Below, piece by piece: positions 6,575-47,130 of a DNA stretch of 64,000 bases. Position 1 is the stretch's first letter. Each line of letters opens with the position of its first letter. The notes under the pieces were generated by a model, which saw nothing but the letters and a program-made list of their open reading frames with translations, was not told where the DNA came from and did not search any database. The DNA is taken from contig OY760937.1 of assembly GCA_963664225.1 (NCBI GenBank), positions 1 through 64,000 of the forward strand. Reading direction: 5' to 3'. The translations under genes and the position numbers were made by a program. This DNA comes from Verrucomicrobiia bacterium. Its GTDB lineage: Bacteria > Verrucomicrobiota > Verrucomicrobiia > Limisphaerales > UBA1319.

Positions 6575-6605
6575 GCGGTAAAAGACACTGAGTCGAGGCA
6601 ACATT

Positions 6606-7405: not shown

Positions 7406-7746
7406 CCGCAATGGGAACCGGACGCAGGAGTTATGAGGATCGTTTTCCACGGAAAATTCCAGCCGGGTGTGACGCGTGGCCTGTTTCGGCTCACCAAGGA
7501 ATACAGTCATTGCCAAACGTCGGATCCCATACATCGAATATTACGCGTGGTCATGCGTCGCGCAAGCGGGAGCCCGCCAGCATCCGCTTCCCGCATGATA
7601 AGGGGGACACACACTAAACTTTCTCGAACGATGGATTTAGTTGTTCCAACGGCTGTCAGCCAAACCTCTCCAGAAGCCACCTATGTGAAGCATTCCTTGG
7701 TTCACGCAAACCAGTCGTAAACGAATCCAATGAAAGGTTCTTCTGC

Positions 7747-8199: not shown

Positions 8200-8411
8200 A
8201 GAGGTCCAGCAACACTTGGCAATGACCGTGGCAATGTATCCGCCAGGCCACTTGGCTCTGGGTGCCGCCACGGGGCTTGTCCTGCGAAAAGGCTACACTT
8301 CAGCCCGAGTCCAAGAAGATGTTGACCCGTGGCAATACAACCCGAATAACGGCTATCCAGCGGTCGGTAGCAGGTACTGGCACCTGTAGAGCCATAGAGA
8401 ACGGTACGCTT

Positions 8412-14429: not shown

Positions 14430-16265
14430 ATGTATATCTCACGACTGGTCATTCGCAACTTCAGGAATTTCAATCACCTTGATGTTCTAATTCGACCGGG
14501 AGTTACTTGTGTTGTCGGAGAGAACAACACCGGAAAAACGAATCTATTCCACGCTCTGAGGCTGGTCTTGGATGTCAACCTCTCATCGTCCTTTCGGCAA
14601 CTAACCGAAAGTGACGTCCATCGTTGTATAAGCTTAAGCAAGGCGCAGCAGGTTCTGATCTCAGTCGAATTGAAGGATTACGCAACAAAGCCAGAAGAAT
14701 GCGCCATGTGCGGGCTTTGGGAAGTTCAACCGAATGTGGCACGGCTAACGTTTCGCTTCCGTCCACAACAGTCTATCCGTGAGGCCATCGCCCGCGAGGA
14801 ACGAGATCCGAATTCATTAAGTTCTGAGGATTATCGGTGGGAGTTGACTTCTGGTACAAGTGGAAGTGAGAACGACCCTTCCACTGTTGAGTGGGATGCG
14901 CCGTGTGGAGTGGCTGTTAGGTTTCAAGATCTTCAGGCCTTCAAGATCGATTTTCTACCAGCGCTACGCGACGTTGAAAGCGACTTGCGCAACGTGCGAA
15001 CCTCGCCTTTGAGCCGGCTACTATCTGTCATGGATATTCCGCAGGAGGAAAGAGACGCACTTGTTGAAATTATTCGAACTGCCAATAGTAATGTCGAGGC
15101 AAGTCCTACGATCCACACGGCTGGCGAAGCTGTGACAACATCGTTCGCAGATACCGCGGGAACCGCCTTTGCACTACCTGTCAGATTGGGAATGATTGCC
15201 CCGACGTTTGCTTCCATCACCCGAAGCCTTACTCTTCTGTTGAGCAATGGTCCCGTAATTGACTTTGATCCGTCCCGAAATGGGCTGGGTCTTAACAACG
15301 TTCTTTACGTTAGTATGCTCTTGGAGTACTTCCGACGACGTATCCTACGACAAGGTACTGCTGGTCAGCTGCTTTTGATTGAAGAACCGGAAGCTCATCT
15401 GCATCCTCAACTTCAGCGTGTGCTTTACTCCAAAGTTAAGGAGAGCGCTTTTCAAACATTTATTACGACTCACAGTACGCACATAAGCTCGGCTTCACCG
15501 TTCGATTCGTTCGTAATGCTCACGGGTGGTGGGGATATGGCCACCAGCTCGACAGTTGCCTCCAGTATCGCGGCCCTCGGTGAATCAGAGAAGGCCGATC
15601 TCGAGCGTTACTTGGACGCTACTCGTTCTACACTCCTTTTCGCACGCAAAGTCATTCTCGTAGAGGGACCCGCGGAGTTGTTCCTGATCCCACCGCTAGT
15701 CAAAGCGGTCATGAATGTTGACTTGGAACGGTACGGAATCTCCGTAGTGCCGATTCACGGTGTTCATTTTACTTCCTACGCTAAGCTGTTCTCTTCCAAA
15801 GGGCTCCGGAAAAAGTGTGTGATTCTAACTGATGGCGATCTTGTGCCAAGCGACGGGACGAGCGAGGACTGTCAATCCGAAGATCAACCGAAACCCACAC
15901 GGCTCAAGGACCTTAAAGAGTTGGAGAACAGCTATATGCGAGTATTCGCGTGCGAAACAACATTTGAGCGTACTCTCGCCATTCAAGGGTTATTGCCTGT
16001 TCTGGAGGCTGGTGCAAAGGAGTTGGAGGCTCCTCGTTTGCAGTCACTTATTGCAAAAGCAATAACCAGTCTCGGAACGAAGAAGAGTGACGCTCGTATC
16101 AAAATACTGGATGGTATTGGCTCTGCAGTTCTGAACACGGCCAAGCGCTTCGGCAAAGCTCGTTTTGCTCAGGTCGTTTCAAAACACTCTGCTTTAGGTA
16201 GCGATCTCCCTCCTTACATTCGGGATGCTGTTAACTGGCTTATTAACGATGATCCTCACGCCTGA
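14430..16265 (+). CDS. OLD-family ATP-dependent nuclease (ABC ATPase + TOPRIM), GajA-like
   Basis: IRNFRNF, GENNTGKT (Walker A), LLIEEPEAHLHPQLQ, TTHSTH, VILVEGPAE, LTDGD. Confidence 0.9.
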   Translation: MYISRLVIRNFRNFNHLDVLIRPGVTCVVGENNTGKTNLFHALRLVLDVNLSSSFRQLTESDVHRCISLSKAQQVLISVELKDYATKPEECAMCGLWEVQPNVARLTFRFRPQQSIREAIAREERDPNSLSSEDYRWELTSGTSGSENDPSTVEWDAPCGVAVRFQDLQAFKIDFLPALRDVESDLRNVRTSPLSRLLSVMDIPQEERDALVEIIRTANSNVEASPTIHTAGEAVTTSFADTAGTAFALPVRLGMIAPTFASITRSLTLLLSNGPVIDFDPSRNGLGLNNVLYVSMLLEYFRRRILRQGTAGQLLLIEEPEAHLHPQLQRVLYSKVKESAFQTFITTHSTHISSASPFDSFVMLTGGGDMATSSTVASSIAALGESEKADLERYLDATRSTLLFARKVILVEGPAELFLIPPLVKAVMNVDLERYGISVVPIHGVHFTSYAKLFSSKGLRKKCVILTDGDLVPSDGTSEDCQSEDQPKPTRLKDLKELENSYMRVFACETTFERTLAIQGLLPVLEAGAKELEAPRLQSLIAKAITSLGTKKSDARIKILDGIGSAVLNTAKRFGKARFAQVVSKHSALGSDLPPYIRDAVNWLINDDPHA

Positions 16266-16566
16266 ACAACTAGCAGCCGTTAACTGCGATACGAACGCCC
16301 TGGTGGAAGCCTGTCCGGGAAGTGGAAAAACGCGTGCGATTGTTGCAAAACTTCTTCGCTGTGTTGAGGAAGTCCAAGACTCCACTCGGAAGGTGGCGGT
16401 TATCACGTACACAAATGCTGCGGTCTACGAAATTGAATCACGGCTAAGAATATACGGTTCCGTTCACGATCTTGACTCATGTGAAGTGTCGACAATTCAT
16501 TCCTTTTGTCTAAACGTATCCGTCAGGCGAAGTGGCTATAGGCAATGGCCGGGCTGAAGTGGTTAA

Positions 16567-16914
16567 ATGGGGGGCGTGAAGCACCGAACTGCATCCTCAA
16601 ATCGATTTCCGCAAACCACATGTGAACAACGTGCCCAATGGATCCTTCGCTATCACCAGAGTGGATTGACGCGGCGCGCCTTTGCTTCTGAGTATGGCAT
16701 CGGATTGTCCACATTGGGGAGGTGGCTCAGAGACCCGGTGCCCACCGCCGTGGAACCACCCGCACTGCCACGCCTGCAGGAAGTCCCTCTGGCTTCCCTG
16801 CTGGGAAATTCGCCTTGGGCTGCGGAAATCACCTTTGCCGACGGGACCGCGGTGCGCCTGACTGGGGACCTGGCCGACCGACTTTTGCAACCCTGGCTTG
16901 GGGCGCGTTCATGA
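16567..16914 (+). CDS. tnpA: IS66 accessory protein TnpA (HTH)
   Basis: SGLTRRAFASEYGIGLSTLGRW; first ORF in the IS. Confidence 0.8.
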   Translation: MGGVKHRTASSNRFPQTTCEQRAQWILRYHQSGLTRRAFASEYGIGLSTLGRWLRDPVPTAVEPPALPRLQEVPLASLLGNSPWAAEITFADGTAVRLTGDLADRLLQPWLGARS

Positions 16915-17246
16915 TCACGCCCACTGCCGCCACACGTATCTTCGTTGCCCTGGCTCCGATGGACTTGCGCCAGTCCTTTAACGGGCTGTGTGCCTGGGTC
17001 CAGGAGTCCTTGCGTCAGGATCCTCTCTCGGGCCATCTTTTTTTGTTCACCAACAAACACCGGAACCGTCTCAAGGCCCTTTACTGGGACGGCAGCGGAC
17101 TTTGGGTCAGCACAAAACGTTTGGAGCGGGGTCGATTTACCTGGCCACAAGGGGAGGGATTGCAGGCAAACTTGCGCGCCGAGGAACTCAGCGCGTTAGT
17201 CAACGGATTGGAGATCCGCGCACGCAAAGACTGGCGGCGAAACTGA
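16911..17246 (+). CDS. tnpB: IS66 accessory protein TnpB
   Basis: DLRQSFNGL, LFLFTN...LKALYWDGSGLWV..KRLERGRFTWP; ATGA overlap with tnpA. Confidence 0.9.
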   Translation: MITPTAATRIFVALAPMDLRQSFNGLCAWVQESLRQDPLSGHLFLFTNKHRNRLKALYWDGSGLWVSTKRLERGRFTWPQGEGLQANLRAEELSALVNGLEIRARKDWRRN

Positions 17247-17312
17247 AAGATTCTTAAAATAAATTGCGTATAACTATTGACATAATAATTTATATTGTTA
17301 TGAGTAATAACA

Positions 17313-18962
17313 ATGAATCCAGCACCGTCACTGACTCCCGAACTTCTGGCTCAGATGCCCGAGTCCTTCCGCGGTGTCGTCCTCCAGGCCGTTGGTCAGC
17401 TCGAAAGTCAGGTGCAGTCTCTGTCCAGCGAGAACAAGCTCCTGCGCCAGAAAATCGATGCCCTGATCCGCCAGTATTTTGGTTCACCCAAAAACGAGAC
17501 CCTCGATCCCAACCAACTGCTTCTGCTCTTGAGCGGACTGGCAGGAACCTCCGCCCCGGTTGCGGCCACCCCGGTCCAATCCGCCCCGGCTTCCAAAGCC
17601 ACGACAAATCGCAAACCGGCCCGTTCGGGGATTCCGGAGAATCTGCCCATTGAAAAGGTGGTGCTGCTGCCCGACGAGGTGAAAGCCAACCCGGACCAGT
17701 TCCGCCAGATTGACCAGCTGATCACACGGGAATTGGACTATGAGCCGGGCCGGTTTTTCTGGAGGGAAATTACGCGGCCAAAGTTTGTGCGTCGGACTGC
17801 GGCGGCCCCGGCCCCCGAAATTTCGCTCACGACACCGGAAGGCAAGCTGCCGCCGCTGGCGTTGGCCCTGGCAATGACCTCGTTGCCCGAGGTCAGGGAG
17901 GTTCTGATCGCGGAGCTGCCCAACCGGCTGATCGAAAAAGGACTGCCGGGAGTGGGCTTGCTGGTCCACTTGATTTTGAGCCGCTTTGAAGATCATCTGC
18001 CCTTTTACCGGCTGGAAAAGATCTTCCGGGAACGACACAGGGTGCCCATCGCCCGGCAGACAATGGTCGATTGGACCGAACGCCTGGCCGATTGGTTCCT
18101 GCCGGTCTATCGCGAGATGGCCGCTGGACTGCGCGCCGCCAAATATCTTCAAGCCGACGAGACCCCCATTCAATATCTGGACCGGGAAGTGCCCGGGCGC
18201 AGTTGCACGGGATACTTCTGGGTGTATGGCCAGCCAGGCGGAGATGTGATTTTCGAGTGGAAGACCAGCCGGGGCCGGGAAGGACCCAAGGCGTTTCTGG
18301 AGACTTTCAAGGGCAAGCTCCAATGCGATGGCTATGGCGTCTATCAATCTTTGGCTAGGGAACGGGAGGATTGGACCCTGATCGGTTGCTGGGCCCATTG
18401 CCGGCGATATTTCCATAAGGCCAAGGATCATGACCGGCACGCGGCCTGGTTTTTGAAGCAAATCAGCCTGCTCTATGAGATTGAACGACGTCTGAGCCAG
18501 CAGAAGGCCGGGCCCAACCTGCGGGAAGCCGTGCGGGCTGCGGAGGCCAAGCCCGTGCTCGCGCGCATTGGAAGGGCGCTGGAGAAAATCGAGCCCAAGA
18601 TTTTGCCCCAAAGCCTTCTGGGCAAGGCCATCCATTATGCCAGGGGTTTGTGGACAGAGTTGAATCAATATGCCCAGTTCGGGGAGGTGGCGATTGATAA
18701 TAATCCGATCGAGAACATAATTCGGCCCACGGCCATTGGGAAAAAGAACTTCCTGTTCATTGGCCATCCCGAGGCGGGCTGGCGAAGCGCCGTGATCTAC
18801 TCGATCCTGGGCAGTTGTCATCGCCATAAAATCAATCCGGCCCTCTATTTGCGTGATGTGCTCAGCCGCCTCCCCAACATGCAGCAAAGTGAGGTGCCAA
18901 CCATTACCCCAAAAGCCTGGGCCAAGGCACATCCCGAAGCGCTCGCACAGTTGCCCAAGTAA
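17313..18962 (+). CDS. tnpC: IS66 DDE transposase TnpC
   Basis: DHLPFYR, QADET, QCDGY, CWAHCRR, IDNNPIE, GKKNFLF. Confidence 0.95.
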   Translation: MNPAPSLTPELLAQMPESFRGVVLQAVGQLESQVQSLSSENKLLRQKIDALIRQYFGSPKNETLDPNQLLLLLSGLAGTSAPVAATPVQSAPASKATTNRKPARSGIPENLPIEKVVLLPDEVKANPDQFRQIDQLITRELDYEPGRFFWREITRPKFVRRTAAAPAPEISLTTPEGKLPPLALALAMTSLPEVREVLIAELPNRLIEKGLPGVGLLVHLILSRFEDHLPFYRLEKIFRERHRVPIARQTMVDWTERLADWFLPVYREMAAGLRAAKYLQADETPIQYLDREVPGRSCTGYFWVYGQPGGDVIFEWKTSRGREGPKAFLETFKGKLQCDGYGVYQSLAREREDWTLIGCWAHCRRYFHKAKDHDRHAAWFLKQISLLYEIERRLSQQKAGPNLREAVRAAEAKPVLARIGRALEKIEPKILPQSLLGKAIHYARGLWTELNQYAQFGEVAIDNNPIENIIRPTAIGKKNFLFIGHPEAGWRSAVIYSILGSCHRHKINPALYLRDVLSRLPNMQQSEVPTITPKAWAKAHPEALAQLPK

Positions 18963-20719
18963 CCGATGCCTTGTTGCGGGTGACTTCTGAAAGTTGCCAT
19001 ATTCGCCTTTCACGCCGCCAATCTAATCAGGCCAGCCCCACATTGCCTATTGCCACTTCGCCTGACGGATACGTCTAAACAATATTCTCAGCCGCTTTTA
19101 CTGGCGGATTGAAGGATATGAGACGGGATTTAAGCTCATGGCACCTGACAGCGACGAGTTCCGCGCAATTGTTCATGAACTGTGCCAGGACTTTAGCTTG
19201 CGAGTCTCTTCTGTTAAAGAAGAGTTCGAACGACTAACTCGCGCACCAGACGGCGAACCGGTTCTTAGCCGTAGTTCGGGTCTCTCTCGCGAAATTGCTC
19301 TAGAGTTTTGGAACAGGTTGCGTGCGGTACGAGCAGTGGACTTTTCAACCCTGCTCTACATTACGTACCGGCTTCTGAATGATTACCCCAGTCTCCCACA
19401 CGCTCTTGCATGCCGCTTCGAGTGGATTCTGGTGGACGAATTCCAGGATACTACAGACCTACAGGTCGAAATCCTTAGAAAGCTTCACAATGATGGAAAC
19501 GCTAAGTATTTCCTTGTCGGTGATCCGCATCAATCTATTTTCGGTTTTGCGGGAGCGCGCCCCCATTTGATGTCAGAGTTCGCTACTTACATCGGTGCGC
19601 GAAGGGACTTTCGTCTTTACCACAACTGGCGCTCAAATCCTCAAATAGTGGCACACGCGGAATTACTGCGTCCGCGTGATGTCCCTATGGTCGCGAGTGG
19701 GCAAAGTGTAATCAATCCTCATGGGCCGCAATACGTTCATGTCGAAAGCGTAACCAATGCTCTGCAGGACCACTTTTTACCGGGATTGCTTGACCTCGGC
19801 ATTGAATATGGCAACGCCGCGATTTTGGCCCCCGACTGGTTTACCTTATTTCCGATTGGCCGCTTCTTACGCGATTACGGGATTCCCATCATTGGTCCAG
19901 GTGCTAGACCTTATCGAGGCAGCCAACTATTTGCGAGACTGGCAGAGTATGTTTGTGCTTATATTGAAGATCCACAGCCACGGCTAGTGCGTAACATACA
20001 AAGGGAATTGCATCGGCTTCTACTCGAGATAGCAGGTATAGACAGATATGATATTCTAGGCTACACCGGCGCAGTTACTGTGTTTCGCATTTTGCATGAA
20101 GGGCAACGCTTGAGGCTCGCTGTTCCTTCGGCGGAGCAGTGGCTAGTTCGAGCTGCGGCCGAGTTCAGCAACATTCTTGTCGCAGATGGAGTGTTACCAG
20201 TCTCTGCGAGCAACTTGCTCAGCGAATCCGCAGCTGTAATCTGTGAACAGATGCGCAACAGCCGTGACATCGATTTTTCCAACATGACGGTTAGTGATCT
20301 TGGATTGTTTGCCGCGACAGACCAAAGCCTTCAGTTACTTACCATACATGCGGCCAAAGGAAAGGAGTTTGACGCTGTGGCTTTGGTTGGGTTGCATGAA
20401 GGACAACTTCCGAATCGGCGTGCGGAGTCTGTGGATGAGATTGACGAGGCTAAGCGCCTATTATATGTCGGCATTACCAGAGCTAAACGCTTTCTGCTCT
20501 ACGTCACTGATCAAGGAAGATCAACAAATCGTCCCTCGCGCTTTTTAGGAGGTGATGGACTGAATGTGATTGATAACTGTTAACGGACAGTGTGCCGCAT
20601 GGAAGCCTCAACCGTGTTCTGCTTGTTGTTAGTAGGGCTTTGAATACTTTTAAACCAACATCGAAGTTGCTGCCGTCGGCATATCTGTCAGACTTCTTAT
20701 ATTTGCAAAGCGCTTTCTT

Positions 20720-22440: not shown

Positions 22441-22634
22441 CCTTTTGCGGCAAATTGTGACCCCTACCCTCAATTCTTCCGAACATCAATACTTACAACA
22501 TGATACAATAAACACCAGTCGGATATCTTAAAAGAAGGAGACAGACAGACGGTTCGAAAGAAGCGGTAGATATTGTTGACTAGAATGTCATTATCATGTT
22601 GTAATGTTCTAGCTTCATCCATGACACCCAGCCA
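22441..22634 (-). repeat. Repeat R4: att-like repeat forming the 3' end of LSR 1
   Basis: Encodes WLGVMDEART...RKN-stop; + strand tail ATCCATGACACCCAGCCA. Confidence 0.9.
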
Positions 22635-24311
22635 ATGAGCATCATCGACTGTTAATATTGGATTTCGCCCATACAGCGAAACGATTTTATCCGGTTCGAT
22701 TGAATCCTTTTTAGAGTCATGGGTAGTTAGTGCATTTTCCAATATCTCAAACGGTTTTATGGCTTCAATCATGAGTTGTTTGTCCTGGAGGAAAAAGTTC
22801 GATCCAATCGTCGCCAGAATCCTTTTTTTGGTTTTGGAATCGCCTTTCGTAAAATCTTCGCGGGCCGTGCTGGCGAATTCGAAGAATTGCTCTGAGAGCT
22901 CCAGCCATTTGGTCACGCGATGTCCGGTGTCATTAAGCTGTTCTTCCAGACGACTCTTTTCATTCAGTAGGTCTGCCCTTTGCCGTCCGTATTCCTCATT
23001 CGATAACAGGCTGCCATCGCCGTTTTCAGGCGCGGTTTGGAGTTTGATCAGGTTGTCGATTCGTTGAAGACAAGCTTTGTAAGACCGATTCCTCACATCA
23101 ATATCCTCGTCTCGGTTCGTTGATTCCTGTTCATGGAGCAAACGCAGGTATTTGAGCGCGTAATCCTTGAAATGCGCGGAAATATGAATTTGCGACAGGA
23201 GCGCATCAATTTGGTCTTCGATTTTCTTGCTGCTAATGCTTTTTTGAGAGCAATGTGGGTTTTTGCTTTTGGTGCAGTGGTAATAAGTGTAGGAGCGAAT
23301 TGTGGGGTTTGCCATGTTCTCAATGGGAGTTCGGCAACGGGGGCATTCTTTTAAATGTCGATATGCGAATTTGAAATGGCAATTGGTGCACACGAGCTGG
23401 TGCTTTTCCTCAGCGGTCACCATCGATTGGCATTCACCGCAACGGATGAAGCCTGTAAACGGAAAATCAGTGTGAATGCTTGGCCTGGGGTTGCCGTTGC
23501 GGCCAAGCAAGACTTGAACCCGATCATATTCCTGTCTGGTCACCATCGGCTCGTGCTTTCCTTTGTGCCACTGACCGCTTCCTTTCGGTGATTCGAACCA
23601 GCCTGAATAGAAGGGGTTATTGAAAATATGGTATATCGCGCTCCGGCAAAGGGGCTTGCCACCCGTTTTCCGGGTTTGACGCGTGCGAAAGCCCCAATCG
23701 TTATTGACGAGGTCAAGGATTTTGGGCGGTGTATGGAGGCCGGTTAACATTAAAACCCACATGCGGCGAAGGATTTGGAAGCGTTCAGGATCTTTGATGA
23801 GGATCTTTTCTCCTGTCGACATGACGGTGTTGTTCAAATATCCAAGTGGGGCGACACCAGGATACCAGCCATTTTCGATTTTGGTTTTCAGGCCGCGCTT
23901 CACGTTGCGGCTCAGATCATCCACGTATTTTTGGGCCATGCCGAACTCGATATACATGAGGATTACGTTGTCATCCCCGTGGCTGAAATTCTGGGCAGGC
24001 GTCGCGACATGGATGCCGTGTGTCTTGATCGCCCAAATGATTGAACCACCATCCACCGGATTGCGCGCCAAGCGGTCGAGTTTCCAGCAGATGATACCGG
24101 AGACTTCCCCGCGATATATGCGTTGCATCATTGCGTTGAACATCGGTCGCCCGGGTTCCTTGGCTGATTTTGATTCTGTCACAACATCGGCAACCGTAAA
24201 TCCATATTTATTGGCAAGTTCTTGAAGTTCACGGGTTTGGGATTCAATGGAAAGGACCTGCCGGTCTTCGGCTTCTGATGATTTGCGGCAATAGATGAAG
24301 TATTTTGGCAT
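22470..24311 (-). CDS. large serine recombinase 1 (catalytic, recombinase and zinc-ribbon domains with coiled coil)
   Basis: YCRKSSE, WKLDRLARN, LSRNVKRG, GKHEPMV, FTGFIRCGEC...YYHC, long coiled coil. Confidence 0.95.
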   Translation of the reverse strand: MPKYFIYCRKSSEAEDRQVLSIESQTRELQELANKYGFTVADVVTESKSAKEPGRPMFNAMMQRIYRGEVSGIICWKLDRLARNPVDGGSIIWAIKTHGIHVATPAQNFSHGDDNVILMYIEFGMAQKYVDDLSRNVKRGLKTKIENGWYPGVAPLGYLNNTVMSTGEKILIKDPERFQILRRMWVLMLTGLHTPPKILDLVNNDWGFRTRQTRKTGGKPLCRSAIYHIFNNPFYSGWFESPKGSGQWHKGKHEPMVTRQEYDRVQVLLGRNGNPRPSIHTDFPFTGFIRCGECQSMVTAEEKHQLVCTNCHFKFAYRHLKECPRCRTPIENMANPTIRSYTYYHCTKSKNPHCSQKSISSKKIEDQIDALLSQIHISAHFKDYALKYLRLLHEQESTNRDEDIDVRNRSYKACLQRIDNLIKLQTAPENGDGSLLSNEEYGRQRADLLNEKSRLEEQLNDTGHRVTKWLELSEQFFEFASTAREDFTKGDSKTKKRILATIGSNFFLQDKQLMIEAIKPFEILENALTTHDSKKDSIEPDKIVSLYGRNPILTVDDAHWLGVMDEARTLQHDNDILVNNIYRFFRTVCLSPSFKISDWCLLYHVVSIDVRKN

Positions 24312-36938: not shown

Positions 36939-37295
36939 ATGGCCTCGCAACAACTTTCAAATTATTTGCGGACATATCGGAAGCGTTCCGCACTTTCTCA
37001 GGATGAAGTGGCGTTTCTTTTGGGTCAAAAAAGCGGAGCCAAAGTCTGCCGATACGAACGGTTTAAGCGAGAACCCGGGCTGCAAACTGTACTTGCCTAT
37101 GTGGCAATCTTCCAAAAACCTGTTTCTGATCTTTTCCCAGGTCTCTATCAAGAAATTGCCGGGAATGTGAGAGCCCGAGCCGCAAAGTTGGCCGTGCAAC
37201 TGAGTAAAAACAAATCGACCAAGGCGGCCATGCTCAAGCGCCAAACGTTAGCCACCATTGTCGACATGGTTTCAAATAATGGAAAACAAACATGA
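36939..37295 (+). CDS. XRE-family HTH regulator
   Basis: NYLRTYRKRSALSQDEVAFLLG...VCRYERFKREP. Confidence 0.85.
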   Translation: MASQQLSNYLRTYRKRSALSQDEVAFLLGQKSGAKVCRYERFKREPGLQTVLAYVAIFQKPVSDLFPGLYQEIAGNVRARAAKLAVQLSKNKSTKAAMLKRQTLATIVDMVSNNGKQT

Positions 37296-37855
37296 GTCGC
37301 AACAGGACAGAGCATCTCCGCGTTTTAGGAATCGCTCCATCAACGCGGGGTTTTGGCTTTGTGTTGATGGAAGGGGAGAACACGCTTGTCGATTGGGGTG
37401 TCAAAGCGGTGAAAAGAGACAAAAATGCCAGGTCACTCTCAAATGTGGCGAACCTTATTGACCTTTACAGGCCGGATGTGGTGGCCCTTGAGAATACGCG
37501 CTTAAAGGAGTCACGGCGATCTGTGAGAATAAAGGAGCTAGTCGAGGGGATTATCGTTTTGGCTAAAAGCCAAAATATTCGAGTTAAGTTGTTCTCGCCT
37601 AAGAAGTTAAAAATACAATTTCTGAATGATGAATATGGGACAAAACAGGCCATGGCTGAATCTTTGGCGGCTCGTTTTCCTGAAGAATTAGGTTTTCAAC
37701 TTCCAAAAAGACGGAGGATTTGGATGGGGCCAGATTATCGAATGGATATTTTCATTGCGGTGGCTCTAACTCGGTACTTTCTATGTGCTCGGCAAAAACC
37801 GGGTAATTCCGTTATGGTGCGAACCACAAAAGTATGTGAAGTGTGCAAAGATTGA
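37292..37855 (+). CDS. RuvC/RNase H-fold protein with degenerate catalytic motif
   Basis: RVLGIAPSTRGFGFVL...RPDVVALE...GTKQAMA matches RuvC-type motifs, with GIAP in place of GIDP; ATGA-coupled to the HTH gene. Confidence 0.7.
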   Translation: MSRNRTEHLRVLGIAPSTRGFGFVLMEGENTLVDWGVKAVKRDKNARSLSNVANLIDLYRPDVVALENTRLKESRRSVRIKELVEGIIVLAKSQNIRVKLFSPKKLKIQFLNDEYGTKQAMAESLAARFPEELGFQLPKRRRIWMGPDYRMDIFIAVALTRYFLCARQKPGNSVMVRTTKVCEVCKD

Positions 37856-37913
37856 ACGAATTACGGTTCATTTTCACATCAATCCGTCTTTGCTTCATTG
37901 ACATAACGCCACG

Positions 37914-38567
37914 GTGGGTTTGGAAAGCATTCTGATACACAAGAAAAGAAAATATCACATTTCGCTTCAATTCGGTGAAATATCTGTTACATCTCATTTG
38001 GAAACATTAAATAGATCACGAAAAAAGAATGGTTTAATGTCTTACTCAGGCTTAATCTCGCTAGAGAGGGCTCTCTTGGAGTCGTTAAGAATTGTTGTCG
38101 GCCAGCATTCCAATACCTCCCAGATTTGGCGTGGCAATTTCGTCGCCACGAATACCGATCCTACAAAGCCAGCAAAACATTATATAAACGTCTTTCGGTT
38201 TCCAAAGCTAAACAACTATCTCGACGATTCATTCCAACGAAACCGCAATACGGACATCAGGATAAACAGCGTTGTTGTTTATGAGTTAGTTAAAATACAT
38301 ATCAAACAACTTTCGCGTGCTGGGTGGCTGAGACATGAAAATGAAGCTGGGCAGCGTTATTCACAACACTCGCATGTCGATCATACTTTCCAAAACACGA
38401 AGAGGCTGCCCTCCTTGAAGCGAAGTTGTGGAGACTATAAAACATCACACATCGATCAAAACCATATTCGCACTTCGCGATGTGCAAATACGCTCAATCG
38501 GTTTCACTCGCTAGTTTCCAACCTGCTTGGAAGTTATCTAGTCAGCCAAAATGCAAAGTCCACATAA
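37914..38567 (+). CDS. hypothetical protein
   Basis: 217 stop-free codons in AT-rich DNA; no motif; start uncertain. Confidence 0.3.
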   Translation: MGLESILIHKKRKYHISLQFGEISVTSHLETLNRSRKKNGLMSYSGLISLERALLESLRIVVGQHSNTSQIWRGNFVATNTDPTKPAKHYINVFRFPKLNNYLDDSFQRNRNTDIRINSVVVYELVKIHIKQLSRAGWLRHENEAGQRYSQHSHVDHTFQNTKRLPSLKRSCGDYKTSHIDQNHIRTSRCANTLNRFHSLVSNLLGSYLVSQNAKST

Positions 38568-41500
38568 TATTATGAACAAACACACAGCCACTCCAAAAGC
38601 TGGAAAATGCAAGGCGGTGTCAGCCACTGAACTCGTCAGTATTACAAACATGTTACACAAGCAGTTGGAGTGTCTGAAGTATATTGGCGGAAAAACGACT
38701 GCGGAAAAACCTACAGGCGAAGGTGTTGACATCAATATTCTCCTACTTCCATGCCTTGCACTCGATTTTCGCCAGTACAACATTGGAAAAGGAAAGCGCG
38801 TTTGCACGGTAGGAGGGCGCGCTGCACGCATGGCCTGCGCTCTCTTACATTTACAGGATCAAGAAGATGGCACTTATCGCATACAACTATTGGCTCGCAC
38901 TGGAGAGCTCGGAAGGATATTGCTTGCCAATGAATTCACCGCAGAAAACGCCGTTCGTCACCAGCGCAACCTAAACCTTGACTTAGTCTTTACACGACCA
39001 GGAGAACCACGGTGTGTTATCTTTAAAAACAAGGGAGCGCATCCAGATTCGCCCGGCCCATTAAAAGAGAACGAACTGCGACTCGAGGATCTTAAAGATC
39101 CAAGAGTTGGGCGTGCCATTAGTCGTGCGAAGGCAATTTGCTTCACCTCCATTAAATTAGATCAACATCTCGATCTTATAGAGGAACTTGCAAACTACCT
39201 CAAACCTCAGGAGACTCCCATTTTTCTTGATCTGTTGAGATCAGGGCCAAATAGCCTTGTGGTTAAGTTGTTCACGAAGATAAAAGCTATTAAGGGTGTG
39301 CCCCCATTGCACCTATTCGTTCCAAGCGATATAACAAACAAGTTGTGTCGCCTTGCCAAAACAAAAACCATCCATGAGATGTGCCATGCTTATAACATTC
39401 GTGTTATCACATATTCCAACAATTCCTCTACATTAACTGTCACTGGTCCGAAAGGCATAGAACACTACGCTTCAGGAATAAAACCCATAAAAGGTGAAGA
39501 CATGGGAATTCGATTCAAAGCGGGTGTTGTCTTAGCTGAAAGCCTATATCAGGCGATCATAACACTGGACATCAAAAATGAATTAGGTAGTAAGATGTTG
39601 GCATTCTGGAAGGATGCTCATTGGGAAAAAGTCATAGGTTATGGCGCGGCTATGGCATCAGCGATCACTTTTGAAGCCGACAAACACGAAGGTTATTGTT
39701 CACTGGAACAGTTGGTTTGTAGGGCAGGGAATAAATCGGAACACTATCCGGACAACACGACAGTCTCCCTTGTCCGAAACGGAATGTTTCCCGAGTTTCC
39801 AGCTCCGAAACATTCGACTGAGTTTGTTCTGCATCCTGAACATATGGGAGATGCTGCCCAACTTGCCGGTTTTCGTCGTGGTTCAGCAGATGCATCGCGA
39901 ACGGCCCCTTCATTATTATATAACCCAAAACTTTCGCTGTGTGCAAAGCCCAATCCAAAATGTGACTTCTGCCCGAAAAGGAACGTTGAACCATCTACTC
40001 CTTCAGCCGCTGTTATGATCGACCTCGACAGCACTCTAATGAATTCCACCGCCGAGCGCAGAAAGGCGGTCTCGGTTGCGCTACGAAGGCTCGTCAGTTC
40101 GCTAGAGAAGATAGGCTATAATGTTGCTATTAATTATAATTCCGAAGGAAAAGAAGAGCCTCTAGGTGAATTTTTTGATAAAAATATATATTCTCTGTGG
40201 TCAGTCTTTAAGTTAATGGGCAGAGGCGATTTCCGGCAGCAATGGAATCATCATGGCTGGTACGCTTCTTTCATAATTCTTGCCCATGAGCCAGGCTTGC
40301 TAGAGGATTTAGTTAATGGCAGCAAACACTTTGTTGCTTTGTGTGAAGAAAATCCTTGGGAACAGGCGCGCGACAATTATGGCCAACAGAATATAGAGTC
40401 TTTGCAAAAAACAATTTGGTGGCAAATGTTCGCCAATAAATATGACGAAGTGCTAAAGCTATATGGTGACTTGATTAAGACTGCACAAGCAAACTTTGAG
40501 GGTGTTGAATTGACTCCGTATAAAGAGGCACGTGACTTTTTGAAATCGCTGAAGGATAGCGGGGCATTTTATTTGTATGTGGTTTCAGAAGGCGATCCAG
40601 CAACTCAATGGTTAAAGTTAAAAAGCACTGGTCTTGCTGATTTTATTGGAAGAGATCATCTTTTGACTACTGGAGAGGCCGCAGAACCGGTGAAGGAGCG
40701 GCAGCAACTTAGCGATGAACAGAATGCCATATCCAAACAATATACAGAAGCTGTCCGTCGGCAGCAATCGGCCGACCAAAGAGTTTTTGACTCAGGCGGT
40801 CTCCATAGAGTGCTCGTGGCTAGACTTCGCAATAATGAGGCTAGCGCAAGAATTGCGAGTGAATTATCGCGTCGCAGCCAAGCTGATGAGATGGAATTAC
40901 CAAGTCTTGAGGCAGCCACAAGGCGTCTTGAACTCTATCAACAAGCAATATTATTCGCCAACGCCGTTATCACTCGCATGGCGAAAAAGCGAGGCAAACC
41001 ATTTTACGCAGCAGTAGTGCGGGCGATCTTACGTAAGCCACATTCCCCTCTCAATGAGTTACGGAATTTCTCACGTCTGATGGATAAACCACGAAATCAA
41101 GAGATGATCAAATTTGCCATGATTGGAGACAGGCAAGATAATGACATTGATCCCCCATCTGAACTCTTGGGAAGAGAACATTTACTCTCCATTCGTATAC
41201 GCTCGGAGCGCGATAGCAAACAAACCAAGAATAAGGAGTTCCCGCCCAATTACATAGTCGAATCACTCGCACAAGCTAAAGCGATAATATTGAGCAAAAA
41301 TACGTGGGATCATATTTGGTGTAAAGACGCTCCACCGATATTTAACTGGCGTAATATGCCGGAGCCTGGAGGAAATAGTCGAAGTTATTTCGACAGTAGC
41401 GATAACACAGTGTGCCTTGCTGTATTGATTGCTGGAATAATATACGCAAGTCGACCAAGCTCGTTAACGAGGAAAATATGTGCTGGTGTTCTACTTGAAC

Positions 41501-41868
41501 AATTCGCATCTCAGTCAGATAAATGGCAAAATGATGGTGACGCCGATAAAGCCTTGAGTACATGCTTACAACCGCCTTTTGATGATCATGACGATTTTGA
41601 GCGCGTAGTCTTAGTAGAGCGTGTGTTGTGTGCTTTGGTATTGAGCGCACAGGTGTGCTCTGACCCATTACTGAGGCGGTTAGCAGATAGAATTGCGGTT
41701 AAAATCTCCGAACTTTATGGAGAATTGAAACGAATGCCATTGTCGACCGAGCCTATAGCGTTTGAACGAACAACTGCCTTCTTAGAAATGGGGGCCGCGT
41801 TACGTACATTTGCGGATAATGGTAGTGATTTTGCGAAGAATATCGCACGAAACGCTTTGGAAGACTAA
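38551..41868 (+). CDS. degenerate PfkB/ribokinase-like domain fused to a HAD-family hydrolase (1105 aa)
   Basis: PfkB-like GGRAARMACAL...LARTGELG and EDMGIRFKAG. HAD motifs IDLDSTL, VVSEG, K(P) and MIGDRQDNDI. Confidence 0.7.
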   Translation: MQSPHNIMNKHTATPKAGKCKAVSATELVSITNMLHKQLECLKYIGGKTTAEKPTGEGVDINILLLPCLALDFRQYNIGKGKRVCTVGGRAARMACALLHLQDQEDGTYRIQLLARTGELGRILLANEFTAENAVRHQRNLNLDLVFTRPGEPRCVIFKNKGAHPDSPGPLKENELRLEDLKDPRVGRAISRAKAICFTSIKLDQHLDLIEELANYLKPQETPIFLDLLRSGPNSLVVKLFTKIKAIKGVPPLHLFVPSDITNKLCRLAKTKTIHEMCHAYNIRVITYSNNSSTLTVTGPKGIEHYASGIKPIKGEDMGIRFKAGVVLAESLYQAIITLDIKNELGSKMLAFWKDAHWEKVIGYGAAMASAITFEADKHEGYCSLEQLVCRAGNKSEHYPDNTTVSLVRNGMFPEFPAPKHSTEFVLHPEHMGDAAQLAGFRRGSADASRTAPSLLYNPKLSLCAKPNPKCDFCPKRNVEPSTPSAAVMIDLDSTLMNSTAERRKAVSVALRRLVSSLEKIGYNVAINYNSEGKEEPLGEFFDKNIYSLWSVFKLMGRGDFRQQWNHHGWYASFIILAHEPGLLEDLVNGSKHFVALCEENPWEQARDNYGQQNIESLQKTIWWQMFANKYDEVLKLYGDLIKTAQANFEGVELTPYKEARDFLKSLKDSGAFYLYVVSEGDPATQWLKLKSTGLADFIGRDHLLTTGEAAEPVKERQQLSDEQNAISKQYTEAVRRQQSADQRVFDSGGLHRVLVARLRNNEASARIASELSRRSQADEMELPSLEAATRRLELYQQAILFANAVITRMAKKRGKPFYAAVVRAILRKPHSPLNELRNFSRLMDKPRNQEMIKFAMIGDRQDNDIDPPSELLGREHLLSIRIRSERDSKQTKNKEFPPNYIVESLAQAKAIILSKNTWDHIWCKDAPPIFNWRNMPEPGGNSRSYFDSSDNTVCLAVLIAGIIYASRPSSLTRKICAGVLLEQFASQSDKWQNDGDADKALSTCLQPPFDDHDDFERVVLVERVLCALVLSAQVCSDPLLRRLADRIAVKISELYGELKRMPLSTEPIAFERTTAFLEMGAALRTFADNGSDFAKNIARNALED

Positions 41869-41929
41869 TGGTCTATTGTAACTTGATTTAGTAGATGGGA
41901 CATTTAAGGGCGACATAATGTAATCAAAA

Positions 41930-43348
41930 ATGAATTCAGACGCTGATTATAAGATAAAAGAAGTGCGGCATTTACTTGATAGTAAGCAATTTAAGGAAGC
42001 CGATGTATTTGTGCAGATGTTGGAGGATGGTTGGCTGTGTTATGTTCTAAAGGCAGACATCTGTATTGCCAAAATGAACGAGGCTAGCATTCCGCGCAAA
42101 AACATCCCGTCTTATAGCGAGAAGGCACGCACATTATGTATGCGTGCGTGGTTATCGTTGTATAATGATTCGGGTCAGGAAAGTGTGGATAAGTATCTTA
42201 GTAAAATAAAATCACAATTAAGAGACATCCTCAAAACGGAGCGCATTTGCTGCGCGCTTGGCGTGGAACGATTGAAAGAGGATGAAGTAATTCAAAAGTT
42301 TTATATAGATAGACCTGACATCCAGCGGTGTAGTCTAGGTGAGCAGTCGCTTAAAGCTCGCGATCGGCTTAAAGGTGGACTTTGGCCATTGCGGACAATT
42401 GATTCCAGTGAATATTTCCTCAAGTTTCTAAAAATATATTCATCCTATACTCCGCTAGTCTCAAGTGACAATGTGGCGCAGCATGGTGGAGGCTATTTTG
42501 CTTGCTTTGGAGGCTATGGCTGCGTTATTGACCCGGGACATCACTTCCTCGATAACTTCTTCCGCTACGGACATTCTATCCACGATATTGATTGCGTAGT
42601 AATTACTCACTTTCACGACGACCATTACGCGGATTTTCTCGCTTTACTGTCATTACTTCATCAGAGATCGAAGCTGGTAAAAACGAAAGACGGCAACAGA
42701 AAACAATCCTCCGATGAAGTTCACAAACCAGGAAGACGGCTTCGAAAGAAAGTTGATTTCTTTTTAGATGCAACGAGCTACGAAATGTTTGCATCATTGC
42801 TTTGTCCCAATAAAGGTGGAGTAAGAAAAGTTCGGTTTTGTCGACGCTTTGAAAAACTCAGTCCGGATGGTCCAATTATATCATTAGCTAAAGGGATAAC
42901 AATGAGACCAATATGTACTCAACATAATGTCTTAGGACGCAATTCTGGTGTGGGTCTTCTCTTTATGATACCGCGTCGTAAAACGAGTGTTCTGATCACC
43001 GGTGACACTGCATGGAAAGGTTGCATGCCTGAGGCTTATCGCGAATTGGCCTCTTCGATAGGCAATAAGAACTGTGTGGTAGTAGCTCATGTGAGCACTG
43101 CGTATGAGAAAGAGGTAATTGGCGGATTTTACAATAATCACTTGGCGATTCGGGGTCTTTGCCGGGTTATCGCGGCGATGAGACCAAAGCAGGTAATCCT
43201 GTCTGAAATTGGTGAGGAGTTGAGGGACAGCATCAGTGGCTTAAAAGACATTATTAAAACAGTTTATGGGTGCAAGTGTTATGTTGGATGGATTGAACAG
43301 GATTACAGTGAAACAAAGCGTGACAAACCGTTTACATACAATTTTTAA
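41930..43348 (+). CDS. metallo-beta-lactamase-fold hydrolase with a helical N-terminal region
   Basis: GGGYF, VIDPG, ITHFHDDHYAD, TQH, ITGDT, VVAH, NNHL. Confidence 0.85.
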   Translation: MNSDADYKIKEVRHLLDSKQFKEADVFVQMLEDGWLCYVLKADICIAKMNEASIPRKNIPSYSEKARTLCMRAWLSLYNDSGQESVDKYLSKIKSQLRDILKTERICCALGVERLKEDEVIQKFYIDRPDIQRCSLGEQSLKARDRLKGGLWPLRTIDSSEYFLKFLKIYSSYTPLVSSDNVAQHGGGYFACFGGYGCVIDPGHHFLDNFFRYGHSIHDIDCVVITHFHDDHYADFLALLSLLHQRSKLVKTKDGNRKQSSDEVHKPGRRLRKKVDFFLDATSYEMFASLLCPNKGGVRKVRFCRRFEKLSPDGPIISLAKGITMRPICTQHNVLGRNSGVGLLFMIPRRKTSVLITGDTAWKGCMPEAYRELASSIGNKNCVVVAHVSTAYEKEVIGGFYNNHLAIRGLCRVIAAMRPKQVILSEIGEELRDSISGLKDIIKTVYGCKCYVGWIEQDYSETKRDKPFTYNF

Positions 43349-44990: not shown

Positions 44991-45155
44991 AACCCGAAAT
45001 CCGAAATAGGAACGGCCCATCTGACGCAATCATTTGGCCATCCATGGTTTGAAACCGGCTGTGGAGTATTGATTTAATACACCTTCGCCGATTGCAAATC
45101 ATGGCTGTCTCAAAGCATTGCATCGTCTTGACCATTCTTATTTCGGATTTCGGGT
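44991..45155. repeat. small inverted-repeat-bounded element (MITE-like)
   Basis: Perfect 17-bp IR ACCCGAAATCCGAAATA (44992-45008) / TATTTCGGATTTCGGGT (45139-45155), extending imperfectly inward. Confidence 0.7.
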
Positions 45156-47130
45156 GTGCGCCAGTGAAATTGGTAGCCTCGTGGGTGAAAGTCCCGCCGG
45201 TCGAATTAGACGGTTCACGACCGAAATGCAGCGTCCGGGACGAGGCCGTGAGGCCGAACCACAAGCGGGACGCTGAAAGAACTGTCGGGTCGTAACGAAA
45301 GTAAACCTCATCAAATGAGCTCCGAAACCGAAATAACCGGTAAGCCGAGCCGCTACCCGAACGGCGAAGGCAGAAACGCGGCGTCATCAAATCGTCAAAT
45401 GGGCGCTGTTGATTCCGGCGGAGTCAGCGAGGGCGACACGACAGGAAGGGAAACCAAGGTAAGCTGGGAGATCTCTGGAGGCGGGGCGATAAAGCCTCAA
45501 CCGCCGGTGCAAGGAGGAACACCCTCCGAGGCCGCACGGGCAGCCAGAGAAGTCGGAGTCTTCCATAGTAGCGAAGAAGCTGGGGCGACCAAAACCCCGG
45601 CGGAGCCAAGGGAAGGCACTTGGATCGAAGCGAATCAAAACAGCGAGGGACAGGGAGATGGCCTTGAGGGAGTGGAAACACTTTTTCAACGGATAACAAC
45701 CCCGATAAAAGTTCAAAAGCTGCAGCGAGCGCTATATTGCAAAGCCAAGGCTGAGCCGAAGTATCGGTTTTACAGCCTCTACGGAGAACTGCTGCGGAAG
45801 GACGTGCTGGAAACGGCAATGGCCTCCGTGGCGCACAACAATGGCGCGGCTGGGATCGACGGGCAGACATGCGACGTCTATCTTGCCAGCGACGAAGCCT
45901 GGGACCAATGGCGGAACCAACTGCTGGAGGAGTTACGCACGAAGAAGTATCGGCCAAGCCCGGTGAAGCGTGTGTATATACCAAAAGGAGACGGGAAGCT
46001 GCGACCCCTGGGCATCCCGACAGTGAAAGACCGGGTGGTGCAGACAGCGGTGGTGATTGTATTGCTGCCGATTCTGGAAGCCGATAGTCATCCGAACAGT
46101 TACGCCTATCATCCCAAACGCAATGCCCACCAAGCAATGGAGGCGATCAAGAAGGCTACGCTGACAGGACGCGTCGAAGTTATAGACGCGGACTTAAGCG
46201 GGTATTTTGACAGCATTCCCCACAGGCGTTTGTTGCGCATAGTGGCCAAGCGGGTCAGCGATGGAACAATTCTCAAGCTGATCGCAGGATGGCTGCGCGC
46301 GCCCGTGAATGAACCGCAAAGCGACACAGGGAAAGGCGGGACAAAGGGGGGGCAAGGTCAGAATCGACGGGGGACTCCGCAAGGCGGGGTTGTATCGCCG
46401 ATTTTAGCCAATGCATACCTCAACCAGTTGGATTGGGAAGTCAACGAACGCTGCGAACTCAAACCCGTGATGGTGAGATACGCGGATGATTTCGTGATAC
46501 TCGGACAGCCGGGGCAGGGACGGGAACTGATGGAACGACTGGAACGATGGCTGAAGCAACGCGAGTTAGTGCTCAACGAGAAGAAGACCCGCTTGGTGGA
46601 CCTCCGCCAGGATGGCATCAAATTCTTGGGATTCGCGCTAACAATGCGACAGGGGAAGGGGAAATGGAAATATCCGCATGTGGAACCCCATCCCAAGAGC
46701 CAGAAGAAGTTTCGAGACGGGATTCGGGAGAAACTCAACCGAAGCACGCTATGGCGTGATATCGGAGAGGTGATTCCCGAGCTCAACAAGAAACTCAAAG
46801 GTTGGAAGGGTTACTTTCACTACGGGAACAGCACCAAGGTGATGGGCCAGATGAACGAATACGTCAGCAGCAAGTTACAACGATGGTTGTGGCGCAAACA
46901 CGGATGTAGTCGGGCGCAATGGTCCACATACCCCAAGGAGGATCTCTATGAGCGTTATGGTTTATACCAAATGCCGGAATATGCGGCATGGAAACGATGA
47001 CGTCGAAGCGATGCAACGTATGATCCCCGGAGAGCCGGATGCGGGAAAACCGCCTGTCCGGTTCGATGAGGGGCGAAATGCGACGGTCATTGGCCACGGC
47101 CATTCAATCCGTCCATTTCGCCTACTCTAC
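45156..47130 (+). mobile_element. group II intron
   Basis: 5' GTGCG; domain V GAGCCGGATGCGGGAAAACCGCCTGTCCGGTTC at ~47032; domain VI ending CCTACTCTAC; internal RT ORF. Confidence 0.9.
45315..47000 (+). CDS. ltrA: group II intron reverse transcriptase/maturase without HNH domain (true start probably near 45670)
   Basis: RPLGIPTVKDRVVQ, DADLSGYFDSIPH, GTPQGGVVSPILAN, RYADDF, FLGF, GWKGYF. Confidence 0.95.
   Translation: MSSETEITGKPSRYPNGEGRNAASSNRQMGAVDSGGVSEGDTTGRETKVSWEISGGGAIKPQPPVQGGTPSEAARAAREVGVFHSSEEAGATKTPAEPREGTWIEANQNSEGQGDGLEGVETLFQRITTPIKVQKLQRALYCKAKAEPKYRFYSLYGELLRKDVLETAMASVAHNNGAAGIDGQTCDVYLASDEAWDQWRNQLLEELRTKKYRPSPVKRVYIPKGDGKLRPLGIPTVKDRVVQTAVVIVLLPILEADSHPNSYAYHPKRNAHQAMEAIKKATLTGRVEVIDADLSGYFDSIPHRRLLRIVAKRVSDGTILKLIAGWLRAPVNEPQSDTGKGGTKGGQGQNRRGTPQGGVVSPILANAYLNQLDWEVNERCELKPVMVRYADDFVILGQPGQGRELMERLERWLKQRELVLNEKKTRLVDLRQDGIKFLGFALTMRQGKGKWKYPHVEPHPKSQKKFRDGIREKLNRSTLWRDIGEVIPELNKKLKGWKGYFHYGNSTKVMGQMNEYVSSKLQRWLWRKHGCSRAQWSTYPKEDLYERYGLYQMPEYAAWKR

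Follow-up and report, generated by a model that had tools for sequence, protein, structure and literature searches.

A conserved two-gene module of a PfkB-like/HAD fusion protein and a metallo-beta-lactamase-fold protein in a mobile and defence island of a Verrucomicrobiia bacterium

The subject of this work is a pair of adjacent genes, called here gene A and gene B, on a stretch of 64,000 nucleotides (nt) of DNA from a Verrucomicrobiia bacterium (NCBI GenBank assembly GCA_963664225.1, contig OY760937.1, positions 1 to 64,000); this whole stretch is referred to as the window, and positions are those of the window unless another contig is named. A preliminary description, made from the sequence alone, had reported an 1105-residue protein joining a ribokinase-like part to a HAD phosphatase, followed 61 bp later by a protein of the metallo-beta-lactamase (MBL) fold, and had proposed the two as a candidate defence or nucleotide-sensing pair. 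Open reading frame (ORF) calling in the window recovered both genes intact where they had been placed, separated by 61 nt (41869-41929). Gene A has a second possible start at Met8 (38572); a protein begun there would have 1098 residues, the length of the database entry P0003. No convincing plus-strand terminator lies between the two genes, and the promoters proposed by the promoter and terminator scan were no better than those in shuffled sequence. Both genes are AT-rich, as had been described, with a GC content of 0.43-0.45 across 38-44 kb compared with 0.55-0.60 from 44 kb on. The pair and its parts are as follows.

38551-41868, plus strand: gene A, 1105 residues
38725-39735, plus strand: ribokinase/PfkB-fold domain, gene A residues ~59-395 (VIA, Foldseek, motif mapping)
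39940-39972, plus strand: tri-Cys linker CAKPNPKCDFC, gene A residues 464-474, semi-conserved
40006-41310, plus strand: HAD phosphatase core with a large helical cap, gene A residues ~486-920 (Pfam, NCBIfam, PDB profile, motifs)
40690-40977, plus strand: helical-hairpin insert of ~95 residues, gene A residues 714-809 (predicted secondary structure)
41311-41865, plus strand: C-terminal, mostly helical domain, gene A residues 921-1105 (predicted helices 956-1104; conserved in the family)
41930-43348, plus strand: gene B, 472 residues
41930-42394, plus strand: all-helical TPR-like N-terminal domain, gene B residues 1-155 (seven predicted helices, 3-150)
42395-43345, plus strand: binuclear MBL-fold core, probably a phosphodiesterase, gene B residues 156-472 (Pfam, Foldseek, motifs)

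A word-indexed search of 5.8 billion clusters returned 21 other full-length homologues of gene A at 28-36% identity; gene B has 88 other homologues. When 1.84 billion representatives were searched with HMMER, gene A gave 336 matches at E <= 0.001 (135 at E <= 1e-30), of which ~30 were full-length close relatives and the rest were fragments and a second tier of 1,100-1,460-residue proteins. The preliminary description had predicted that the two genes would co-occur elsewhere, and a gene B homologue indeed lies directly downstream of the gene A homologue at 8/8 loci with downstream DNA, namely the window, L001, L002, L003, L008, L010 (a fragment) and L011, found by tblastn, together with L030; L009 ends inside gene A. 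Spacing between the two genes ranges over these loci from a 64-nt overlap of the called ORFs to a gap of 61 nt. L011 is a deep branch at ~20% identity, where hhalign matched the gene A homologue with a probability of 99.9 (profile columns 16-887, kinase-like part included) and the MBL protein with a probability of 100. Because the pairing persists in this deep branch, the coupling of the two genes is old. Indirect evidence of pairing also comes from 16/21 gene A homologues, whose longest contig is the same size as that of an MBL-family match. Among the best 150 of the 336 HMMER matches, no protein fusing gene A to gene B was found, as Pfam detected no MBL domain in the 47 long relatives scanned.

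Flanking genes vary at every locus, and no metabolic partner, transporter or regulator is conserved with the pair. The neighbours are an HNH_2 endonuclease, an integrase, QueC and a radical-SAM gene at L008; an N6-methylase fragment and glycan-binding proteins at L001; a DDE transposase at L011; an IS3 transposase, then a glycosidase and housekeeping genes at L002; a sugar ABC transporter, URO-D and a nitroreductase at L003; and a 1550-residue protein of unknown type with a Calx-beta-like surface protein at L030. At L002 (positions 1-2150 of that contig), gene A is reduced to its last 298 residues beside the IS3-type (rve) transposase at the contig start and the MBL gene is intact, so that this is either a decaying copy or an assembly break. 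Mobile-element or restriction-modification genes flank 4/6 of the other loci scanned, a suggestive rather than statistical association.

The distribution of the pair is sparse. The MBL profile (E <= 1e-10) found no match in 40 relatives of the window genome (same genus 1, family 8, order 31) and matched 2/81 genomes of the order of L001, that of L001 itself included. Members occur in several phyla, in Chitinispirillaceae, Armatimonadetes, Verrucomicrobia and Chitinivibrionales. Gene A had no relatives in 2.9 million viral contigs, neither gene had a tblastn match in 50,697 phage genomes or 72,556 plasmids, and neither matched PHROGs; the sole viral-contig relative of gene B is a TPR-MBL fusion without gene A, described below. 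The pair is a conserved, horizontally mobile two-gene cassette that is rare and patchy. PADLOC v2.0.0 assigned gene A to none of its families and gave gene B a single 13.2-bit partial match to RTasMBL, in which no stretch qualified. Full-text literature searches turned up no account of a PfkB-like/HAD plus MBL pair. No named system was matched, in line with the preliminary description, in which the architecture had not been recognised as one. We conclude that the pair is a genuine undescribed two-gene module in which known enzyme folds stand in a new arrangement.

An AlphaFold2 model of gene A was built from a 22-sequence family alignment (predicted local distance difference test (pLDDT) score 80.9, predicted template modelling score 0.84). 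VIA-align against 48,161 chains matched model range 60-392 to Giardia ribokinase 6whj (Z 23.4, root-mean-square deviation 3.7 A, 288 residues), and the next-ranked matches, at Z 18-22, were to kinases of adenosine, pseudouridine, guanosine and sugars; the 50 matches listed were all ribokinase-like kinases, 49 of the PfkB family and one YjeF-family protein. Foldseek against the PDB likewise returned only PfkB kinases among the matches listed, with TM-target values of up to 0.71, and the ribokinase-like N-terminus of the preliminary description is confirmed. Both lists were filled by the kinase domain, and the HAD, hairpin and C-terminal parts were thus barely probed by them. Sequence profiles detect little of this fold: Pfam PfkB (PF00294) gave no match to gene A at E <= 0.01, a whole-genome search with PF00294 found 10 other genes and not gene A, and hhalign of gene A with six PfkB proteins encoded by the window genome was insignificant (probability 0.28), placing VGGRAAR of gene A on GGKGAN of those proteins.

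Gene A shares with the PfkB/ribokinase family the fold over ~290 residues (Z 18-23), the GG dipeptide (G88 and G89 in 21/22 family members, with one gap) and the strand-1 Asp (D72, 20/22). It departs from that family in escaping PF00294, in carrying D-x-P in place of GAG, and in having Glu for the catalytic Asp, or Ile in the window protein. Aligned with relatives P0216 and P0224, which carry DGAGD or NGAGD, the GAGD columns of the window protein read D317-M-G-I320, and the motif is replaced as had been described. The pattern in these columns across the 22-member family is D/x/P/E, and a near-invariant R-F-K-A-G comes next; the first column is G in 3/22, and the catalytic-Asp column is Glu in 20/22, Ala in one and Ile solely in the window protein. 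As far as the sequence alignment of the family alone shows, no conserved N..E is evident in the strand region where NXXE would be expected (residues ~253-262). Judged from its aligned residues, the kinase fold of gene A has lost the GAG anion hole. Inactivity of the fold, as put forward in the preliminary description, is well supported for the window protein and tentative for the family as a whole.

The Cys-rich linker that follows is possibly a metal knuckle. As previously noted, it contains three Cys columns: C464 is conserved in 16, C471 in 18 and C474 in 21 of the 22 family members; the stretch is modelled at low confidence, with low pLDDT nearby. The HAD domain has all four motifs intact, in agreement with the earlier reading: motif I is D491xD493xT495, motif II S679, motif III K813 and motif IV G859-D860-R861...D865, and D491, D493, T495, S679, K813, D860 and D865 are each present in 22/22. 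A cluster in the cap (R562/W565/N566/G569/W570/Y571) is invariant in the family. PF00702 scores the window protein at 26.2 bits, borderline against its cut-off of 26.4, and 17/21 gene A homologues have a precomputed PF00702 assignment; NCBIfam TIGR02253 matches with an E value of 9.9e-10, far under its cut-off. The affinities of the domain are with TIGR02253 and YjjG nucleotidase and, by PDB profile, with YfnB and PH1655; a single-sequence PDB search gave only a marginal HAD match. The coiled-coil insert reported between motifs II and III corresponds in the model to two long antiparallel helices (714-758 and 763-809) forming a coiled-coil-like hairpin, and the C-terminal region is predicted to be helical, also as reported. 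When the C-terminal domain was used for an Atlas feature search, the top scores were 0.76-0.77, too low to be of any use. Both the hairpin and the C-terminal domain are missing from the alignment of the ~890-residue relatives P0216 and P0224.

Gene B was modelled from a 54-sequence alignment (pLDDT 86.6). Its MBL core scores 30.6 bits against Pfam Lactamase_B_2, above the cut-off of 27, and ten motif residues (D201, H227, H229, D230, D231, H232, H332, D359, H387 and H404) are each present in 54/54 family members, the THFHDDH motif being intact as described. The best Foldseek matches were Bacillus subtilis YhfI (6kns, TM-target 0.85) and Bacillus anthracis BA1088 (1zkp, 0.80), followed by Apyc1 (7u2r, 0.72; 7u2s), an MBL protein annotated as an arylsulfatase, PhnP (3g1p, 0.69), Igni18 and tRNase Z; a PhnP-family diphosphatase (6b9v) was also among the structural matches. 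YhfI, BA1088, Apyc1 and PhnP span TM-target values of 0.67-0.85, at sequence identities of 12-15%, compared with TM-target values of 0.58-0.71 for RNase Z. Sequence-profile matches in the PDB agree (8gyg, 7t28, 1zkp, 6kns and Apyc1 7u2r) and also touch RNase J, and the best weak NCBIfam match is RNase Z. Gene B resembles the YhfI, BA1088, Apyc1 and PhnP enzymes in its core fold and has all of their metal-binding motifs; those enzymes stand alone at ~240-270 residues, whereas gene B adds a helical N-terminal domain of ~155 residues and an obligate neighbour of 1,100 residues. The model places the core on the phosphodiesterase branch of the MBL superfamily, and of the two effector activities proposed in the preliminary description, phosphodiesterase is better supported than nuclease. 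The likeness of gene B to the Apyc1 and YhfI phosphodiesterases, which act on 3',5'-cyclic mononucleotides, is one of fold and of weak profile matches.

The N-terminal domain of gene B varies within the family. TPR matches are weak in the homologue P0029, other variants have long TPR arrays in its place (644-1097 residues in total), and members of ~340 residues, such as that of L030, lack it. Complex prediction for residues 480-1105 of gene A and residues 1-160 of gene B scored 0.00 and speaks neither for nor against contact between the two. One member of the gene B family is a 1097-residue TPR-array and MBL fusion in a viral contig (L015, positions 4907-8200 of that contig), flanked by a tyrosine integrase (DUF6538 and Phage_integrase) and two C5 cytosine methylase genes, with no gene A homologue.

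The 47 long second-tier relatives of gene A were scanned with Pfam for domains joined to the HAD module. In P0155 (1463 residues), CHAT, a caspase-like protease typical of conflict systems, and HEAT precede the same HAD-plus-insert module, and in P0159 (1172 residues) the module is preceded by EAD7 (E 2.1e-21) and HEAT; the modules of the two proteins score 244-269 bits against the gene A family profile. In a sub-family of ~850-920 residues (P0216, P0224, P0207), which has neither the hairpin nor the C-terminal domain, a PfkB domain that keeps the canonical GAGD is fused to the same type of HAD, and Pfam PfkB weakly detects P0216 (21.2 bits) and P0207 (25.3 bits). P0225 carries a methyltransferase; besides it, P0155, P0159, P0216 and P0207, the scanned relatives showed HAD only or nothing. 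The ~890-residue relatives that keep GAGD may preserve the ancestral arrangement and may still be active as both kinase and phosphatase; in the ancestral state, a kinase/phosphatase futile cycle could have burned ATP. EAD7 is described in the available text of Kaur et al. 2020 (PMC7159879) as recruiting effectors in NTP-dependent conflict systems, and in our view the EAD7 and CHAT fusions are the strongest single hint that this HAD clade serves as a conflict effector.

Several characterized systems resemble the pair in part. DS-9, a validated two-gene anti-phage system of a metallophosphatase and a HAD phosphatase whose targets are stated as unknown in the accessible part of its report (DefensePredictor, PMC13092281), is likewise a two-gene unit of a binuclear-metal phosphoesterase and a HAD phosphatase. 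Compared by description only, its esterase is a calcineurin-like metallophosphatase, in contrast to the MBL fold of gene B, which matched no metallophosphatase family at E <= 10, and the same partial description has no PfkB-like domain, coiled-coil insert or HAD protein of 1,100 residues. Type I-C CRISPR systems, such as the one neighbouring the pair, make no cyclic oligoadenylate. Chp, in the part of its report available, is a CARF-HAD phosphatase effector of type III-A CRISPR-Cas that dephosphorylates ATP, dATP and IMP and causes growth arrest (PMC12715507); gene A as proposed would resemble it as a HAD phosphatase effector under the control of a ligand-binding domain. According to that portion of the text, Chp has a CARF sensor, transmembrane helices, cA4 binding and no MBL partner, whereas in gene A the candidate sensor is a PfkB fold.

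The EAD/CHAT effector systems, as far as the available text of Kaur et al. describes them (PMC7159879), share the HAD-plus-insert module with gene A through P0159 and P0155. Gene A itself lacks EAD and CHAT and, unlike those systems, has no NTPase, vWA or GTPase core component adjacent; the derived HAD described there lacks the motif III lysine, whereas K813 of gene A is invariant. MBL-fold defence nucleases are described, in the accessible part of their report (bioRxiv 10.1101/2025.11.14.688446), as dsDNases that are licensed by a protease and are said to be similar to ComEC and RNase J, and Apyc1 is given in the available text of its own report as a phage anti-Pycsar cyclic-nucleotide phosphodiesterase (PMC9117128). 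A paper linking 'pfkB' with defence (PMC11676413) was ruled out; in the portion available, its gene names are unrelated.

The surroundings of the pair, from ~10 to ~47 kb of the window, form a mobile and defence island, in which the CRISPR-Cas locus and the Gabija-like genes of the preliminary description were both identified. Its features are the following.

12844-14325, minus strand: serine recombinase, the first gene listed in the island
14430-16265: GajA (PADLOC E 2.7e-232)
16506-16547 and 19041-19082: 42-nt terminal inverted repeats of an IS66 element
16722-17246 and 17313-18962: TnpB-like ORF and transposase of the IS66 element
22470-24311, minus strand: second large serine recombinase
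Between the second serine recombinase and the CRISPR array: complete type I-C locus of Cas3 (Cas3c), Cas5d, Csd1, Cas7, Cas4, Cas1 and Cas2
32979-~36650: CRISPR array, directly after cas2, 51 copies of the 37-nt repeat GTCACCCCGGTTGAAAAGCCGGGGTGCGGATTGAAAC with a ~72-nt period
36939-38567, plus strand: helix-turn-helix (HTH) protein (118 residues), RuvC-like protein (187 residues) and a 217-residue ORF, directly upstream of the pair (Pfam/NCBIfam)
Downstream of the pair, before the group II intron: divergent HTH gene
~45017-47070: group II intron, with a reverse transcriptase/maturase ORF at 45315-47000

The Gabija helicase gene gajB is interrupted by the IS66-family element (16225-20583): a 110-residue ORF (16225-16557) lies upstream of the insertion, and an ORF 3' of the element (19138-20583) matches positions 111-588 of the GajB model. 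Gabija in the window is probably inactivated. The two large serine recombinases flank the Gabija segment on both sides, and because it is bracketed in this way, the segment is perhaps an integrated element of its own. Contigs from four metagenome runs across 30-48 kb were assembled as in the window, save for the array, which short-read contigs collapse (position 32978 joined to 36582 in two runs), and the multi-copy group II intron, whose summed contig depth was ~460-870 compared with ~23 for its flanks (run X1) and at whose borders many contigs stop. The three genes directly upstream of the pair are tightly packed, with a 4-nt overlap and then a 58-nt gap. The RuvC-like protein matches NCBIfam RuvC at E 3.3e-7, well under the cut-off, and the 217-residue ORF has no family match in Pfam, NCBIfam, PADLOC or PHROGs; neither had relatives in the viral-contig scans. 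These three genes were rejected as core parts of the system, having zero tblastn matches in the other loci, and may have a lineage-specific role in the window genome.

The observations of the preliminary description were thus confirmed, and its interpretation is partly supported. We tentatively propose, with somewhat less than even confidence, that the pair is an undescribed nucleotide-directed conflict module, acting in anti-phage defence, in which the MBL and HAD enzymes degrade a nucleotide substrate or signal under the control of the kinase-like domain. The MBL enzyme would hydrolyse a nucleotide at a phosphodiester or pyrophosphate bond; candidate substrates are cyclic mono- or oligonucleotides, dinucleotides, NAD-derived molecules and cyclic-phosphate ends. 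The HAD enzyme, most closely related to nucleotidases and phosphatases of small molecules and bearing the invariant Arg/Trp/Trp/Tyr cluster in its cap, would then remove the resulting phosphomonoester. Acting together, the two would deplete a pool of nucleotides or abolish a nucleotide signal when the cell is in conflict with a phage or other element. The degenerate kinase fold, which keeps the ribose-side features D72 and G88-G89 and from which the canonical phosphoryl-transfer site appears to be gone, may serve as sensor or substrate holder by binding the nucleoside or ribosyl part and so gate the activity, and assembly may depend on the hairpin together with the two helical domains. A role in conflict or defence gains indirect support from the island with Gabija and type I-C CRISPR-Cas, the sporadic distribution, the mobile-element and restriction-modification neighbours and the HAD relatives fused to EAD7 and CHAT. 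A more specific version would make the pair a new type of immune module, in which a non-catalytic nucleoside-kinase fold is the receptor and a nucleoside or nucleotide that the phage makes or infection induces is its ligand; the receptor would license an MBL-then-HAD cascade that breaks a nucleotide pool or signal down to nucleoside and phosphate. We regard this version as rather doubtful.

Several observations weigh against this proposal. The PADLOC result speaks against a known system and not in favour of defence. The defence context is uneven: L003 and L030 lie among ordinary metabolic and surface-protein genes, and L002 lies beside glycosidase and housekeeping genes. Context was examined at seven other loci, too few for an enrichment statistic. 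The MBL clade of gene B also includes the metabolic PhnP and the RNA-processing RNase Z, and the N-terminal domain of gene B is not essential to the core mechanism, because it is absent in the ~340-residue members. Finally, the kinase fold may not be inactive: 20/22 members keep Glu at the catalytic-base column together with the conserved Arg-Phe-Lys, and the window protein, with its Ile, is the outlier. Because most members keep this Glu, the proposed loss of kinase activity is not established for the family, and this part of the preliminary interpretation stands only as far as the lost GAG anion hole.

A different account of gene B, which we consider unlikely, makes it an RNase Z-like or DNase-like MBL nuclease effector acting on tRNA, RNA or DNA, with gene A as its sensor or regulator. 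The HAD domain would then trim 3'-phosphate or cyclic-phosphate ends, such as those processed by the DxDxT phosphatase of polynucleotide kinase-phosphatase, or would serve only in regulation. Structures of tRNase Z and of RNase Z-tRNA complexes are among the Foldseek matches of gene B (2e7y, 2fk6, 1y44, 4gcw, 3zwf), and the weak RNase Z match in NCBIfam, the RNase J contact of the PDB profile and the TPR-MBL fusions of the gene B family, including the one in a viral contig beside an integrase and two C5 methylases, point the same way. However, the small YhfI, BA1088, Apyc1 and PhnP enzymes rank ahead of RNase Z in TM-target, and the nearest relatives of the HAD domain are capped small-molecule phosphatases, enzymes that as a rule do not admit macromolecules as substrates. 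Some MBL-fold proteins do act as proven defence nucleases once partner proteins license them, but those described in the available text are said to resemble a different branch, that of ComEC and RNase J (bioRxiv 10.1101/2025.11.14.688446).

The nucleotide-directed conflict module has also to be set against rare metabolism. All three folds are those of classic small-molecule metabolic enzymes, and the pair could salvage or detoxify a compound such as a nucleoside, a sugar phosphate or something phosphonate-like, the MBL enzyme opening a cyclic or diester phosphate in the manner of PhnP, the HAD enzyme dephosphorylating and the kinase-like domain binding or phosphorylating the sugar. PhnP and its family diphosphatase among the structural matches of gene B would fit such a pathway, as would the metabolic or surface-protein neighbours at L003, L030 and L002 and the Pfam-recognized GAGD relatives of ~890 residues, which may be true kinase-phosphatase fusions. 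We nevertheless consider it distinctly improbable, given flanks that vary at each locus with no conserved metabolic partner, transporter or regulator, the extreme rarity and patchiness of the pair (336 matches in 1.84 billion representatives, 0/40 and 2/81 genomes), its low GC content and its location in an island. The ~95-residue hairpin, the tri-Cys linker and the extra helical domains would be unusual in a salvage enzyme, and relatives carry the same HAD module behind EAD7 or CHAT. Counter-defence, in which an Apyc1-like MBL and the HAD enzyme would destroy the cyclic-nucleotide signals of Pycsar, CBASS or type III CRISPR, shielding the carrier element or resetting host signalling, is very unlikely: Apyc1 is among the best matches of gene B (7u2s and 7u2r by structure, 7u2r and 7t28 by sequence profile) and transposases or integrases adjoin several loci, but gene A is absent from the viral contigs, phage genomes and plasmids searched and gene B from the phage genomes and plasmids, the sole viral-contig relative of gene B lacks gene A, and ~1,600 residues with sensor-like domains far exceed in size the anti-defence enzymes known to us.

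Should the pair prove metabolic, it would be a curiosity of rare environmental bacteria. If the proposed conflict module is correct, we know of no earlier case in which a ribokinase-fold domain was recruited as the sensor of a conflict system. The invariant active sites, with the HAD Asp pair and the MBL His/Asp cluster, and the small substrate space make the question open to standard assays. Through its EAD7-fused and CHAT-fused relatives, the pair, otherwise an orphan, is connected with the network of shared effectors in the complex conflict systems of Kaur et al. If it functions in defence, phosphoesterase-plus-HAD immunity would gain a third example, unrelated in structure, beside DS-9 and Chp, whose targets in the cell are, in the available parts of the two reports, unknown (PMC13092281) and partly defined (PMC12715507), respectively.

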